From a virus (Duplodnaviria; Heunggongvirae; Uroviricota; Caudoviricetes): a stretch of 10,633 nucleotides of DNA. This document shows positions 3,359 through 10,633 of this stretch, in pieces (the first letter of the stretch is position 1; the number at the start of each line of letters is the position of its first letter). Location of the stretch: the IMG/VR virus record IMGVR_UViG_2548876964_000002; one strand, 5' to 3'. The translations under genes and the position numbers were made by a program. Below the pieces are notes generated by a model. That model was not told the DNA's origin, searched no databases, and worked only from the letters and a program-made list of their open reading frames with translations.

Positions 3359-4018
3359 ATGAAAATGAAATGGTATGAACTGGCTAGATCCAGAATGAAA
3401 GAGCTCGGCATAACTCAAGAGAAGTTAGCCGAAGAGCTTGGTATGACGCAGGGTGGAATTGGTCACTGGTTGCGCGGATCTCGTCATCCATCTCTTGACG
3501 AGATTGGTGTGGTGTTTAAATACCTTGGTATTGATAACGTCTCATTCAACCACGACGGTACATTTTCACCTGTTGGCGAATACTCATCTGCCCCCGTTAA
3601 AAAACAATATGAGTACCCTGTTTTTTCTCATGTTCAGGCCGGTATGTTCTCGCCTGAGCTTAGAACCTTTACCAAAGGTGATGCGGAGAGATGGGTCAGC
3701 ACAACCAAAAAAGCCAGTGATTGTGCGTTTTGGCTTGAAGTTGAAGGTAATTCCATGACCGCGCCAACAGGATCCAAGCCAAGCTTTCCTGACGGGATGT
3801 TAATTCTCGTTGACCCTGAGCAGGCTGTTGAGCCAGGTGATTTCTGCATAGCCAGACTTGGTGGTGACGAGTTTACCTTCAAGAAACTGATCAGGGATAG
3901 CGGTCAGGTGTTCCTACAACCACTAAACCCGCAATATCCAATGATTCCATGCAATGATAGCTGTTCCGTAGTAGGGAAAGTTATCGCCAGCCAGTGGCCT
4001 GAAGAGACATTTAGTTAA
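3359..4018 (+). CDS. cI: CI-type prophage repressor with LexA/S24-like autocleavage domain
   Basis: C-terminal ~135 aa ([36 protein letters not shown]...[12 protein letters not shown]) matches the lambda CI C-terminal domain as recalled, almost residue for residue. N-terminal HTH ([22 protein letters not shown]) is unlike lambda. Start is ambiguous among ATGs at 3359, 3365 and 3317; 3359/3365 are favoured. Confidence 0.9.
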
Positions 4019-4050
4019 CAGCCTCACCACTCTAAAACACACAACAATAA

Positions 4051-4078
4051 CCCGACCTTAGCGTCGGGTTTTCTTTTT
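4051..4078 (+). terminator. Rho-independent terminator after cI
   Basis: Stem cccgac/gtcggg with a 6-nt loop, followed by ttttcttttt, about 33 nt past the cI stop. No rexA/rexB-like ORFs lie between cI and PL. Confidence 0.65.
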
Positions 4079-4144
4079 CCAAAATATAAACCCATTAAAT
4101 ACAAAGCGTTATAAAAAACTAAACCATATTTAGAACATTTTGTA

Positions 4145-4173
4145 TTGACTCAGTAAAGTACACATCGTACTAT
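4145..4173 (+). promoter_or_regulatory. PL-like sigma70 promoter
   Basis: -35 TTGACT (4145-4150), 17-bp spacer, -10 TACTAT (4168-4173), in an AT-rich tract upstream of nutL and N. OL operators are presumed to overlap but were not defined. Confidence 0.65.
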
Positions 4174-4218
4174 TTAGCTATCAGCAGGAAGCTGGAAGCC
4201 AAACGGAACAGACTGGCA

Positions 4219-4265
4219 GGCTCTTTAAACAACGTCGAACACTCGACTACGTGGCTGAAAAGCCA
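4219..4265 (+). promoter_or_regulatory. nutL-like site (boxA plus hairpins)
   Basis: GGCTCTTTAAACAAC (boxA-like), hairpin GTCGAACACTCGAC, spacer TACG, then TGGCTGAAAAGCCA (5-bp stem, GAAA loop). Same tripartite layout as nutR. Confidence 0.6.
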
Positions 4266-4290
4266 GATCACCCAACCACATAAGCTGTGG

Positions 4291-4338
4291 GATGCAATGC
4301 CGAAGCAACCGTCTCAGGAGGGGCTTCGAGATTGCATC
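4291..4338 (+). other. Large imperfect hairpin in the N leader (candidate RNase III or translational-control element)
   Basis: gatgcaat (4291-4298) pairs with attgcatc (4331-4338) and cgaagc (4301-4306) pairs with gcttcg (4323-4328), leaving a 16-nt apical loop. Lies between nutL and the N Shine-Dalgarno; lambda has an RNase III-sensitive hairpin in the equivalent leader. Confidence 0.45.
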
Positions 4339-4363
4339 GCCAAAGTTTATTCGGGAGGAATCT

Positions 4364-4636
4364 ATGTCCAGAAAAACAGAATTTAAAGGAACCGCAGCTT
4401 CTCGCCGTAGAGCTCGTCGTGCAAATCTGCAAAGTCAGGAGGCGATCAGCTCCGACAAGCTACACAGGCCAACCCCTTCACGAGTGGTCTTGCAATGCAA
4501 GCGCAAACCAGCAATGAGAGCAGAAGTGATAACTCTGACAACGTTGACCAGAAAATATGAAGGTTCAACTTGTCTTCCGAACGTAGCCATTTACGCGGCA
4601 GGCTACCGGAAATCAAAACAACTGACGGCGAGATGA
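4364..4636 (+). CDS. N: N-like transcription antitermination protein (90 aa)
   Basis: First gene after PL and nutL; GGGAGG Shine-Dalgarno before the ATG at 4364. Arginine-rich motif near the N-terminus (TAASRRRARRANLQ), as in boxB-binding N proteins. The track's upstream start at 4292 falls inside the leader hairpin and is rejected. Confidence 0.75.
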   Translation: MSRKTEFKGTAASRRRARRANLQSQEAISSDKLHRPTPSRVVLQCKRKPAMRAEVITLTTLTRKYEGSTCLPNVAIYAAGYRKSKQLTAR

Positions 4637-4694
4637 CTTGTGTTGGTCGCCAGAAAATGAAATTAGGCAGCAAACCACTTATTTGAGGTGAGAT

Positions 4695-4781
4695 ATGGAA
4701 GAAGAATTTGAAGAGTTCGAAGAGCATCCGCAGGATGTGATGGAACAATACCAGGACTATCCGTATGACTACGACTACTGA
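4695..4781 (+). CDS. Small hyper-acidic peptide (28 aa), lambda orf28-like
   Basis: MEEEFEEFEEHPQDVMEQYQDYPYDYDY, preceded by GAGGTGAG Shine-Dalgarno; the 3' end overlaps the ral start. Same position and size as the small ORF recalled between N and ral in lambda. Under the track's length cutoff. Confidence 0.5.
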   Translation: MEEEFEEFEEHPQDVMEQYQDYPYDYDY

Positions 4782-4965
4782 TAAAAATCAATGGTGTGGA
4801 CAATTCAAGCGATGCAATGGATGCAAGCTGCAATCGGAATGCATGGTTAAGCCTGAAGAAATGTTTCCTGTAATGGAAGATGGGAAATATGTCGATAAAT
4901 GGGCAATACGAACGACGGCAATGATTGCCAGAGAACTTGGTAAACTGAACAACAAGGCTGCCTGA
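4765..4965 (+). CDS. ral: Ral restriction-alleviation protein (66 aa)
   Basis: MTTTTDKNQWCGQFKRCNGCKLQSECMVKPEEMFPVMEDGKYVDKWAIRTTAMIARELGKLNNKAA matches the lambda Ral sequence as recalled, including the Cys-rich motif. Confidence 0.8.
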   Translation: MTTTTDKNQWCGQFKRCNGCKLQSECMVKPEEMFPVMEDGKYVDKWAIRTTAMIARELGKLNNKAA

Positions 4966-4982
4966 TGGCGGCCTTTATTTTT
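4956..4982 (+). terminator. Rho-independent terminator overlapping the ral stop codon (tL1-like)
   Basis: Stem ggctgcc/ggcggcc (one G-U pair), loop tgat containing the ral TGA, then tttattttt. Confidence 0.55.
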
Positions 4983-5030
4983 GGCATAAACAACAGAATA
5001 AACACAGCACTGAATTATTTGAGGTGAGAT

Positions 5031-5501
5031 ATGACAAAATCATGGAGCGTACCTTTTCCTGAATCAGAAACTGAACATGATGGAATGCCTGTTTTCTGGA
5101 GATTCCAAGCGACAGTTGAAGAAGATGGAATCAAAATATTCGCACTTCAATATATAGCTTTTCATCAGACAGATCATTATGCATGGTTGGTTCCTGCGCA
5201 TTGGATTGTTAATTTTAAACCAGCACCAAATCAGTGGTTACAGGAATGGAAACAAAGGAGAAATAGATATGCAATTAAGAAAGTAGCAAAAAATGCCGAA
5301 AGATCTTTTGCATTCCCGACGAAGAAACTTGCCATTGAAAGTTTATTGCGCCGGAAGAAGTACCATTTAATGAGAATCAAACAAGATTTGGCTGTTGTAT
5401 CAACTCTTGTTGATGGGATGAAGAATATTGATACATCAATACCAGATATTGAATATAACTTTGGACACAACCAAGAAACAGAAAATTGGGTGTTTTATTA
5501 G
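5031..5501 (+). CDS. Hypothetical protein (156 aa), visibly AT-rich, moron-like, no recognised family
   Basis: Clean ORF with GAGGTGAG Shine-Dalgarno and no predicted membrane segments. Composition is clearly more AT-rich than its neighbours by eye (not computed). Sits at the sieB / P22 gene 17 position and is bracketed by terminators at 4956-4982 and 5606-5631. Confidence 0.7.
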   Translation: MTKSWSVPFPESETEHDGMPVFWRFQATVEEDGIKIFALQYIAFHQTDHYAWLVPAHWIVNFKPAPNQWLQEWKQRRNRYAIKKVAKNAERSFAFPTKKLAIESLLRRKKYHLMRIKQDLAVVSTLVDGMKNIDTSIPDIEYNFGHNQETENWVFY

Positions 5502-5515
5502 TACGAATAAGCACT

Positions 5516-5543
5516 GTGTATTCATTCCAACGAGTGAATACAC
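5516..5543. repeat. Perfect 9-bp inverted repeat (GTGTATTCA ... TGAATACAC) with 10-nt spacer
   Basis: Seen directly, 15 nt after the stop of the 156-aa gene. No T-run on either strand, so it is not a standard intrinsic terminator. Confidence 0.5.
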
Positions 5544-5605
5544 GGAGCAATGTCGCTCGTAACTAAACAGGAGCCGACTTGTTCTGATTATTGGAAATCT
5601 TCTTT

Positions 5606-5631
5606 GCCCTCCAGTGTGAGGGCCTTTTTAT
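5606..5631 (+). terminator. Rho-independent terminator upstream of cIII
   Basis: Stem gccctc/gagggc, loop cagtgt, then ctttttat. Confidence 0.6.
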
Positions 5632-5695
5632 ATGCATACCAATAACGCTTCACTCGAGGCGTTTTCGTTATGCAATCAAACAGAAGGAGCATCCT

Positions 5696-5866
5696 ATGCA
5701 ACAGTTCGCTATTGCAGGGGCGGCATCGGTTCGCCCTTTCAACCCGATTTTATCGGTACAGCATTCACGAAAAAATATTTTAACCGGAGCAGACTTTAAA
5801 CAACCAAGAATGAAAAGCTTGCTCGAAAAGCTTTGGGATATTTTGAAACAACAAGGCCGCCCATGA
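5696..5866 (+). CDS. cIII: CIII-like protein (FtsH inhibitor, 56 aa)
   Basis: MQQFAIAG...LLEKLWDILKQQGRP parallels the recalled lambda CIII (MQYAIAG...LIDILNQPGVP). GAAGGAG Shine-Dalgarno before the ATG at 5696. The track's upstream start at 5591 spans the terminator and is rejected. Confidence 0.75.
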   Translation: MQQFAIAGAASVRPFNPILSVQHSRKNILTGADFKQPRMKSLLEKLWDILKQQGRP

Positions 5867-6033
5867 GTTTTACAGATAACTGGTCAGACGAAGAATTCAT
5901 TCGTCAGATGAAAGAATTAATCGGTAACGAAGGAGATATTCATGTCACTTGCAACCACCGTGAAGGAGAGCAAGTTACAGAGACGCATGTACACGCAGCA
6001 GGCGTTAATGTATCGCCAGAAGGGAGATCGTGA
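5863..6033 (+). CDS. Small protein at the kil position (56 aa); possible Kil-like host division inhibitor
   Basis: ATG overlaps the cIII stop (ATGA), so the two are translationally coupled. Assigned by gene order only (cIII then kil then erf in P22-like phages); sequence not recognised. Confidence 0.45.
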   Translation: MSFTDNWSDEEFIRQMKELIGNEGDIHVTCNHREGEQVTETHVHAAGVNVSPEGRS

Positions 6034-6122
6034 AGGTGTTCGCGTATTTTTAAATGCGGCAAAGACTGAAGTATTAAATCAGCGTTATTTCCTTGGGCCA
6101 TGTCCATTCTGAGAACAATCAT

Positions 6123-6728
6123 ATGAGCAAAGAATTTTACGCAAGACTGGCAGCTATTCAGGAAAATCTGAACGCGCCCAAGAATCAGTACAACTCATTC
6201 GGTAAATATAAATACAGAAGCTGCGAAGACATTCTTGAAGGCGTTAAGCCGTTACTGAATGGTCTGTTTTTATCAATCAGCGATGAAGTTGTGTTGATTG
6301 GTAATCGGTATTACGTGAAAGCCACGGCAACTATTACCGATGGCGAAAACAGTCATACGGCAACCGCTCTTGCACGAGAGGAAGAAAGCAAGAAAGGAAT
6401 GGATTCTGCACAAGTTACGGGAGCTACAAGCTCTTATGCACGCAAGTATTGCCTCAATGGTTTGTTCGGCATTGATGATGCGAAAGATGCAGATACAGAC
6501 GAGCATAAACATCAGCAGAACGCAGCAGCAAAGCAATCAAAACCATCACCTACACCTGAACAGGTTCTAAAAGCATTCACTGACGCAGCATTGCAGAAAA
6601 ACACCGTAGAAGAGCTTAAACAGGCGTTCGCCAAAGCGTGGAAGATGCTCGAAGGCACACCGGAGCAGCACAAAGCGCAGGACGTTTACAACATCAGACG
6701 AGACGAATTAGAAGGAGCGGCTGCTTAA
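6123..6728 (+). CDS. erf: Erf-family single-strand annealing recombinase
   Basis: N-terminal two thirds (MSKEFYARLAAIQENLNAPKNQYNSFGKYKYRSCEDILEGVKPLL...GATSSYARKYCLNGLFGIDDAKDAD) closely matches P22 Erf as recalled; the C-terminal third diverges. Start set at the internal ATG at 6123. Confidence 0.9.
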   Translation: MSKEFYARLAAIQENLNAPKNQYNSFGKYKYRSCEDILEGVKPLLNGLFLSISDEVVLIGNRYYVKATATITDGENSHTATALAREEESKKGMDSAQVTGATSSYARKYCLNGLFGIDDAKDADTDEHKHQQNAAAKQSKPSPTPEQVLKAFTDAALQKNTVEELKQAFAKAWKMLEGTPEQHKAQDVYNIRRDELEGAAA

Positions 6729-10248: not shown

Positions 10249-10633
10249 TGAACCGCCCCGGAAATCCTGGAGACTAAACTCCCTGAGAAAGAGGTAAACA
10301 GGATGACTAAAAATACTCGTTTTTCCCCCGAAGTCCGTCAGCGGGCGATTCGTATGGTTCTGGAAAGTCAGGATGAATATGACTCACAGTGGGCGGCAAT
10401 TTGTTCCATTGCCCCAAAGATTGGCTGTACGCCGGAGACTCTGCGTGTCTGGGTTCGCCAGCATGAGCGGGATACCGGGGGCGGTGATGGTGGGCTCACC
10501 AGCGCTGAACGTCAGCGTCTGAAAGAGCTGGAACGTGAAAATCGTGAACTGCGCCGCAGTAACGATATCCTTCGCCAGGCTTCCGCTTATTTTGCGAAGG
10601 CGGAGTTCGACCGCCTCTGGAAAAAATGATGCC
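10249..10633 (+). mobile_element. IS3-family insertion sequence (IS629/IS1203-like), left end and OrfA; continues past the window
   Basis: Left terminus begins TGAACCGCCCCGG at 10249. OrfA follows, and ATGATGCC at 10626 matches the recalled IS629 OrfB start (MMP...) in the overlapping frame. Confidence 0.8.
10303..10629 (+). CDS. IS3-family transposase OrfA (HTH plus leucine-zipper subunit)
   Basis: 108-aa [25 protein letters not shown]...[35 protein letters not shown] matches IS629-type OrfA as recalled. Confidence 0.9.

Follow-up and report, generated by a model that had tools for sequence, protein, structure and literature searches.

The window analysed here is a 10,633-nucleotide stretch of a lambdoid prophage (IMG/VR record IMGVR_UViG_2548876964_000002) in which one 19-nucleotide sequence, TTATTTGAGGTGAGATATG, occurs twice on the + strand, at 4679–4697 and at 5015–5033, and both times ends in the start codon of a gene. 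Comparison with related phages suggests that this translation-start module probably doubles as a short-homology recombination joint for accessory gene cassettes. The element stands at gene starts, it is shared by unrelated downstream genes (called cargos below) and by unrelated upstream contexts, and mosaic breakpoints fall at its edges. Both copies lie in the early-left (PL) operon, which runs on the + strand from about 4290 in the order N, orf28, ral and a gene for a 156-residue protein.

4679 to 4697, + strand: copy 1 of the 19-mer, composed of the A/U-rich TTATTT, the Shine–Dalgarno (SD) sequence GAGGTGA, the spacer GAT and the ATG of orf28
5015 to 5033, + strand: copy 2 of the 19-mer, the last three nucleotides of which are the ATG of the 156-residue gene

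The original prediction, made from the letters of the window alone, described an exact 19-bp module in front of two genes with unrelated sequence behind each ATG, and both points are borne out. The starts of the two copies are 336 bp apart, and no other perfect direct repeat of that length lies between 4200 and 6100. No third copy was found in the window when up to three mismatches were allowed. No match at all is expected by chance, and 200 dinucleotide shuffles yielded not even one. The length of the repeat is exactly 19 bp: the preceding base is C at one copy and A at the other, the base after the ATG is G at one and A at the other, and the sequences downstream of the two start codons are unrelated. 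Homology of the two copies beyond 19 nt was considered and dropped, as the adjoining bases differ on both sides and breakpoints for this class of pair lie at −14 to −16.

Cargos, contexts and breakpoints

The exact 19-mer was found at gene starts in at least 120 IMG/VR viral contigs, in which it precedes at least 12 unrelated open reading frames (ORFs) of 28–156 amino acids (aa), or about 16 if up to three mismatches are allowed. The search for the 19-mer at the gene boundaries of other genomes, proposed as a check on the original prediction, was thus positive. The last codon of the 19-mer is the ATG of the downstream ORF in every case, and the element follows either the N flank or the terminal hairpin of a cargo. 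Nine of the cargos belong to nine different PHROG families, all of unknown function; the only gene of known function in the cassettes is ral (restriction alleviation), a 66-residue ORF behind orf28. Most of the cargo proteins are small and acidic (pI 4.0–4.9 for ten of the 13 examined).

Anchored searches, which started from the 5′ ends of the cargos and did not presuppose the element, gave a similar picture. When the search was anchored on gp45, the HK97 counterpart of the 156-residue gene, 112 of 123 starts carried the exact 19-mer. The starts of orf28 fall into three main variants, GTGATATATG (42), the lambda type (34) and GTGAGATATG (33), in tallies that pool the loci of all three scans and in which the exact form is somewhat over-counted. 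Breakpoints were determined by pairwise comparison of 201 distinct occurrences. For pairs with the same upstream sequence and different cargos, similarity ends exactly after the ATG in 76%; for pairs with the same cargo and different upstream sequences, it is lost at −14 to −16, −25 to −29 or −61/−62 from the ATG. Haplotypes are mixed as well, with positions 1, 7 and 14 of the element giving all four combinations with the cargo.

An exact 32-mer that contains the 19-mer is present in 85 cultured phage records, all of them lambdoids of Escherichia or Shigella; these phages, which include 933W, Sf6, mEpX1 and 2B8, differ in virion type. Within a genome the element is rare. The whole HK97 and lambda genomes have one copy each at up to three mismatches, and the element is therefore specific to its slot and not a general phage ribosome-binding site (RBS). 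These observations bear on whether the cargos could have converged independently on an optimal RBS, with no shared ancestry and no role for recombination. A near-ideal SD sequence, good spacing and an A/U-rich upstream stretch are in keeping with convergence. However, all 19 positions are identical, usually together with 12 nt further upstream and in some contexts with about 45 nt, no other gene of HK97 or lambda uses the element, and the number of chance matches expected is zero. The nested upstream homology effectively refutes convergence, which is the least probable of the explanations considered here.

In lambda (45170–45188) and in HK97 (36232–36250), the start codon of the holin gene S forms the end of a look-alike with four mismatches, TTATTGGGGGTAAGACATG; this look-alike could reflect chance plus likeness to an RBS, or be a distant relative of the element. 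A scan of species-level genomes for the 19-mer returned eight matches, of which only the one in E. coli is plausibly related. The matches in Listeria, Clostridium and several metagenome-assembled genomes were set aside because they fit the approximately four chance matches estimated for a 19-mer in 596 Gb, and the scan is accordingly uninformative on taxonomic spread.

Relatives with and without each cassette

The genes headed by the two copies, a split direct repeat and the right boundary of the slot are as follows.

4695 to 4781, + strand: orf28, with the ATG of copy 1 as its start (phrog_16060, 7e-19, 28/28 aa aligned)
4765 to 4965, + strand: ral (restriction alleviation; Pfam Ral, 3e-47)
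4996 to 5012, + strand: left half of the split direct repeat, GAATAA[ACACA]GCACTG, from alignment with lambda and 2B8
5031 to 5501, + strand: the 156-residue gene, HK97 gp45 / 933W L0079 (phrog_1636, 1e-111, aligned over 1–156/156)
5505 to 5516, + strand: right half of the split direct repeat, GAATAAGCACTG, the last six nucleotides of which begin bsq4
5511 to 5623, + strand: right boundary of the slot, the Sf6 feature 'bsq4; boundary sequence', which ends in a tL2A-like terminator stem at 5606–5623

The peptide gene behind copy 1 had been called orf28-like from its letters, an identity that the full-length family match confirms, with ral as the next gene. Together, orf28 and ral form one travelling cassette: a recognizable ral ORF follows orf28 in most contigs that have the element before orf28. 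In HK97, 933W and TL-2011a, N is followed by ...GGCAGCAAACCAC and the 19-mer, with gp45 directly after it. In phage 2B8 the same 45 nt upstream and the exact 19-mer lead into orf28–ral and then Ea10, without gp45, and in lambda a diverged head, CTATTTAAGGTGATATATG, stands in front of orf28. The window and phi367 have both cassettes stacked. What sets the window apart from HK97 and 933W is an indel of 336 bp, the orf28–ral cassette, which the two 19-mers bracket exactly. In the comparison with lambda and 2B8, the indel is a cassette of 504 bp that holds gp45. Its left junction lies at 5012/5013, after GCACTG and 2 nt upstream of copy 2, and its right junction at 5510/5511, where homology resumes at the GCACTG (5511) that starts bsq4. 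Lambda has a single GAATAAACACTGCACTG in place of the split repeat that brackets this cassette.

These comparisons support the proposal that short linker homology at gene boundaries marks the junctions of module exchange, since relatives with the same flanks break exactly there. They qualify the narrower suggestion that the 19-mer marks the junction at which the AT-rich gene was recombined in (approximately 35–39% GC across gp45 versus 45–52% across N). Relatives do break at the 19-mer, but in the comparison with HK97 and 933W it is orf28–ral that the two copies bracket. Similarly, alignment with relatives that lack the 156-residue gene, namely lambda and 2B8, does reveal gp45 as an indel, but places its left junction just outside copy 2.

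Positions 4560–5140 of the window are 100% identical to prophages of E. coli O111, for example in strain 11128. Among 5426 complete E. coli genomes, the stack is present in only 16, and parts of the arrangement in 2088. The two copies might in principle be the product of a recent event in this genome alone, with gene conversion or a local duplication homogenizing the two start regions. The rarity of the stack would fit such an event, as would three other contigs with the orf28–ral and gp45 stack, in which copy 1 differs from copy 2 by 1–2 nt (GATAT or GATGT for GAGAT), so that exact identity of the copies is particular to the O111 prophage lineage. Against it, the passage from N through the 19-mer to orf28 is exact in 2B8 and the anchored census has 33 orf28 starts with the exact 19-mer, while the passage from N through the 19-mer to gp45 is exact in HK97, 933W and many others. 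As each junction exists separately with the exact 19-mer, local homogenization is not needed to explain the pair and is very unlikely.

Other stacks were also found, among them MEEQA followed by gp45, MEALV followed by gp45, MEALV followed by orf28 and orf28 followed by MDEEV. One contig with three copies (IMGVR_UViG_2630968826_000009, positions ~600–900), in which linker, 19-mer and the 5′ part of gp45 appear as a 246-bp tandem duplication, resembled evidence of unequal crossing-over but was discarded; the junction contains the ambiguity letter N, and the duplication is for this reason most likely a scaffolding or assembly artefact.

The linker around the 19-mer

The following parts of the linker were delineated in the window.

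4637 to 4666, + strand: outer left linker, the 3′ flank of N, common to phages with different N alleles
4667 to 4678, + strand: GCAGCAAACCAC, a 12-nt extension that with copy 1 makes up the 31-nt conserved linker
4954 to 4984, + strand: terminator-like hairpin that includes the ral stop codon, followed by a T-run (9-bp stem and TATTTTT, from a consensus scan)
4983 to 5014, + strand: internal linker body, GGCATAAACAACAGAATAAACACAGCACTGAA, the first 30 nt of which also lie downstream of ral in lambda and 2B8

Judged from the alignments, the 19-mer is the 3′ end of a larger conserved linker, which at the first position usually measures 31 nt. At least nine otherwise unrelated upstream contexts converge on GCAGCAA(A/G)CCAC directly before the 19-mer, which is the reason for setting the usual conserved unit at 31 nt. 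The two classes of N end have the stretch 4637–4666 in common. The breakpoint cluster at −61/−62 is further evidence for this outer part, and the cluster at −25 to −29 for the 12-nt extension. At internal positions the 19-mer lies within a linker of about 60–80 nt that consists of a hairpin, a T-run, GGCATAAACAAC and an RBS module. In the window, the 5′ part of the internal linker is the hairpin at 4954–4975, ral's own version; the fold of 4950–5056 has a z score of −2.5.

Most cargos finish in or at a small hairpin of this kind, the usual form of which is GGCCGCATAGTCGGCC, often with the stop codon in the loop. The leader GGCATAAACAACAGAATAAACACAGCACTGAA before gp45 recurs after three different upstream cargos. 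Several RBS modules can stand behind GGCATAAACAAC. One is the 19-mer preceded by its AGAATAAACACWGCACTGAA leader; the alternatives are AGAGGCTAACATG, AGAGGTGAATATG and TATGGGGTAAAAATG, each with its own cargo, and in other cases the linker passes directly into the 'tail' that corresponds to 5511–5623 of the window. Several unrelated cargos have ...KAA or ...GEEE as their last residues, and the codons for these lie in the conserved region of the terminal hairpin, which suggests that the linker supplies the last codons and the stop codon of those cargos.

Each cassette begins with the repeated sequence and most finish with a hairpin, a layout that recalls an integron-like cassette system in which the linker would be the site of a dedicated site-specific recombinase. 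However, the 19-mer contains no inverted repeat, similarity on the left ends at several discrete positions and not at one fixed crossover point, and the linker has alternative 3′ modules. Furthermore, no match to an integrase or site-specific recombinase was obtained among the scanned ORFs near the slot; the one recombination protein found was an Erf annealing protein. A dedicated site-specific system is extremely unlikely on these grounds.

Translation initiation and regulation

The composition of the 19-mer predicts a strong, unstructured RBS. GAGGUGA can pair with 7 nt of the 3′ end of 16S rRNA at −11.5 kcal/mol, which is among the strongest values in the operon, the spacer to the ATG is 3 nt (GAU), and the A/U-rich TTATTT lies upstream. 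Neither copy folds better than shuffled sequence (z = 0.45 for copy 1), and no Rfam family matched near the element; an explanation in terms of RNA structure was dropped on the basis of these two results. The idea that the shared module equalizes translation of the two genes finds no support, since opening the initiation region, by a rough estimate of accessibility, is predicted to cost 5.05 kcal/mol at copy 1 but 10.06 kcal/mol at copy 2. No promoter-like site was detected in 4600–5040, and only two were detected in 3900–6300, at 4145 and 5869. Going by established lambda biology, expression would therefore have to come from PL, with N reading through the small hairpins.

The SD sequence of ral itself is weak (a duplex of only −4.0 kcal/mol) and the gene overlaps orf28 by 17 nt, so ral is probably translationally coupled to orf28. 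The product of orf28 is a 28-aa peptide, MEEEFEEFEEHPQDVMEQYQDYPYDYDY, which is extremely acidic and aromatic-rich with a net charge of about −12; it may serve as a coupling leader for ral or be a functional mini-protein. For annotators, mini-ORFs of the orf28 type behind this RBS are probably real.

The element could also be conserved mainly as a specific regulatory site that co-regulates the accessory gene after N, with recombination as a by-product; it could be a translational operator or the target of an RNA-binding protein, a small RNA or a nuclease. Several features point in this direction. The positions outside the SD sequence (TTATTT, the GAT spacer and GCAGCAAACCAC upstream) are conserved across unrelated contexts, the diversity of the element is as low as that of first and second codon positions, the element is slot-specific, and analogous start-associated sequences in cluster K mycobacteriophages are suspected binding sites (PMC3203893). 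On the other hand, the element matches nothing in Rfam and lacks a stable or conserved fold, the test for constraint did not reach significance, no candidate for a binding factor emerged, and the nested left boundaries and alternative RBS modules resemble a recombination mosaic and not one fixed operator. We consider it unlikely that regulation is the main reason for conservation; a regulatory role and a role as a recombination joint are not mutually exclusive.

Right edge of the slot and neighbouring genes

Two further genes frame the region.

4292 to 4636, + strand: N-like antitermination gene, promoter-proximal in the PL operon (Pfam N_peptide, 5.8e-32; phrog_271)
6093 to 6728: gene for an Erf recombinase (annealing protein; Pfam ERF), about 1 kb downstream

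The N of the window is homologous to the N of HK97 and 933W. On the right, the window shares 5511–5623 without any difference with Sf6, lambda and HK97, and the Sf6 GenBank record annotates both bsq4 and tL2A. The same record lists bsq2–7, none of which covers Sf6 25072–25102, where Sf6 carries the 31-nt element; the HK620 record contains no bsq features. A perfect 9-bp inverted repeat, GTGTATTCA...TGAATACAC, is found at the start of bsq4 (5517–5544) and is conserved in lambda, HK97 and Sf6.

The gp45 protein gave no match to Pfam, PADLOC or PDB sequences. Between gp45 and erf lie a small phrog_2123 gene and an ORF at approximately 5696–5866, which we take from our own comparison with lambda CIII to be probably cIII-like. 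A 15-nt near-repeat (AACAACAAGGCTGCC and AACAACAAGGCCGCC) is present at 4948–4962, in the 3′ end of ral, and at 5847–5861, where it overlaps the 3′ end of the ORF that ends at 5866. The two copies are in different reading frames, and each lies just before the start of the next gene; about 0.1 such matches were estimated by chance. The near-repeat was set aside as probably coincidental. At the far end of the window, 10584–10633 (+ strand) matches the Rfam ALIL pseudoknot RF01497 (51.2 bits, E = 5e-11), which is cut off by the window end and overlaps an ORF at 10303–10629. In IS3-family transposases this pseudoknot acts as the frameshift signal, so that an insertion sequence probably begins close to 10300, within the prophage.

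A model for cassette exchange

In the model that we favour, the 19-mer would be the RBS head of an intergenic linker that separates small accessory cassettes in Escherichia and Shigella lambdoid phages. The slot for these cassettes extends from N to bsq4/tL2A, in the promoter-proximal part of the PL operon. Any cargo ORF behind the 19-mer would be translated from the N-antiterminated PL transcript. Because the same 19–31 nt (longer in some contexts) precede many cargos in many phages, the linker would provide a patch of homology that ends exactly at the start codon, at which homologous or short-homology recombination could exchange entire cassettes, stack them or remove them, with joints precise to the gene. 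Phage annealing proteins of the Erf, Red or RecT type, or the host RecA, would be the candidate enzymes. In the window the head would be present twice, in direct orientation and 336 bp apart, because orf28–ral and gp45 are stacked; recombination between the two copies would delete orf28–ral and yield exactly the arrangement of HK97 and 933W. We infer from the comparisons that recombination at the element, and not recombination elsewhere followed by selection, gave rise to the arrangements observed.

The model is supported by the pairs with and without a cassette and the breakpoint statistics, indirectly by the mixed haplotypes inside the element, by the Erf-family protein encoded nearby and by bsq4, the annotated boundary sequence at the opposite edge of the slot. 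Some module exchanges in lambdoid phages are explained by short conserved sequences in their flanks (PMC2327257), and boundary sequences have been proposed as sites of homologous recombination, although they are seldom identifiable (PMC3029335, PMC2327257). The minimal homology for recombination by Red or RecA is approximately 30 bp (PMC2327257), for which the 31-mer is long enough.

Several points weigh against this model. Its support is all comparative, with no recombination event observed, and the contigs of the census (at least 120) include many near-identical prophages. The 19 bp of the element are below the approximately 30-bp minimum quoted for efficient Red or RecA recombination (PMC2327257), and since only these 19 bp are common to the two copies in the window, deletion between them would be inefficient. 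The stack is not obtainable from two single-cassette forms by one equal crossover; it needs either an unequal or illegitimate step or a stacked ancestor. In the comparison with lambda, another short repeat, GAATAA..GCACTG, marks the junctions of the gp45 cassette, and the 19-mer is therefore not the sole joint. The four-gamete patterns rest on single-base differences, for which recurrent mutation is possible. Finally, the difference in segregating sites (one of 19 positions in the element versus 14 of 100 third codon positions in gp45) is not significant.

A wider interpretation, which we put forward tentatively and regard as possible at best, is that the slot from N to bsq4 is a recombinase-independent, integron-like cassette array. 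Its universal joint, composed of the terminal hairpin with the stop codon, the T-run, the spacer and the RBS–ATG head, would be kept by selection for rapid exchange of small, mostly acidic early proteins, many of which would be counter-defence or host-takeover factors like Ral. If this were true, the linker would be a search handle for counter-defence and host-takeover genes, and the slot a natural system in which to measure the share of short-homology recombination in phage mosaicism. Beside the anti-restriction gene ral, including in Shiga-toxin phages, the linker flags a hot spot of small early genes with no known function, and it can be used to find more such genes. The natural pairs with and without a cassette on identical flanks, together with the annotated partner bsq4, make the linker question testable in lambda, HK97 and 933W.

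Comparison with known systems

The morons of lambdoid phages are insertions that consist of a promoter, a gene and a terminator. The gp45 cassette resembles them in that an AT-rich accessory gene, followed by a terminator, lies between conserved genes, but gp45 has no promoter of its own and the unit here is RBS–gene–(hairpin). The element is likewise not an integron-type site: none of the ORFs scanned in the vicinity of the slot matched an integrase family, an inverted repeat is absent from the 19-mer and the breakpoints are variable.

The start-associated sequences (SAS/ESAS) of cluster K mycobacteriophages are similar in being asymmetric motifs with an SD core that lie a few bases before the ATGs of unrelated non-structural genes (PMC3203893). 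GAGGTGA stands 3 nt before the ATG of unrelated ORFs, within the 3–7 bp that define SAS. The mycobacteriophage motif is, however, a different 13-bp sequence, GGGATAGGAGCCC, with 93 sites over the cluster K genomes, in the right half of each (PMC3203893), whereas the present element occurs once in HK97, once in lambda and twice in the window, in one slot. SAS are not known to be tied to mosaic breakpoints.

In T4-type phages, promoter-early stem-loop (PeSL) elements are small conserved regulatory cassettes on either side of non-essential ORFs without known function in hypervariable regions; where close relatives differ by insertions, deletions and replacements, recombination between PeSL elements accounts for the differences (PMC2839356, PMC4122927). 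Like PeSL, the element lies in a hyperplastic region next to variable ORFs whose function is unknown. A terminator-like stem-loop adjoins the motif before copy 2 (4954–4975 and the T-run) and in most internal linkers; there is none before copy 1. PeSL contains a strong sigma-70 promoter, whereas the core of the present element is an RBS, with expression expected from the upstream PL and N antitermination. Mini-circles are not known for the present element.

Boundary or linker sequences of lambdoid phages are part of the modular model of Susskind and Botstein. Such a sequence is short and non-coding, lies at a gene boundary and is conserved amid unrelated flanks, with mosaic breakpoints at its edges. 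The element described here has unrelated flanks (at least nine contexts and at least 12 cargos), lies at gene boundaries and has breakpoints at its edges, at the ATG on the right and at −16, −28 and −61 on the left. It differs from the bsq features of Sf6 in being unannotated there as a 19/31-nt element, in comprising a full SD-to-ATG module and in recurring between stacked cassettes; as the element is a complete Shine–Dalgarno-to-ATG module, the joint is gene-precise. No description of the element was found in the searchable literature, with the original HK620 and Sf6 papers outside that search. It has long been debated whether modules are exchanged via short conserved linkers or mostly through illegitimate recombination followed by selection, and this locus is an unusually clean and well-populated linker case, with one 19–31-nt joint, a dozen or more cargos and stacks of them. 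Taken together, the element probably represents, in clear form, a kind of phage recombination joint that is known but has seldom been documented.

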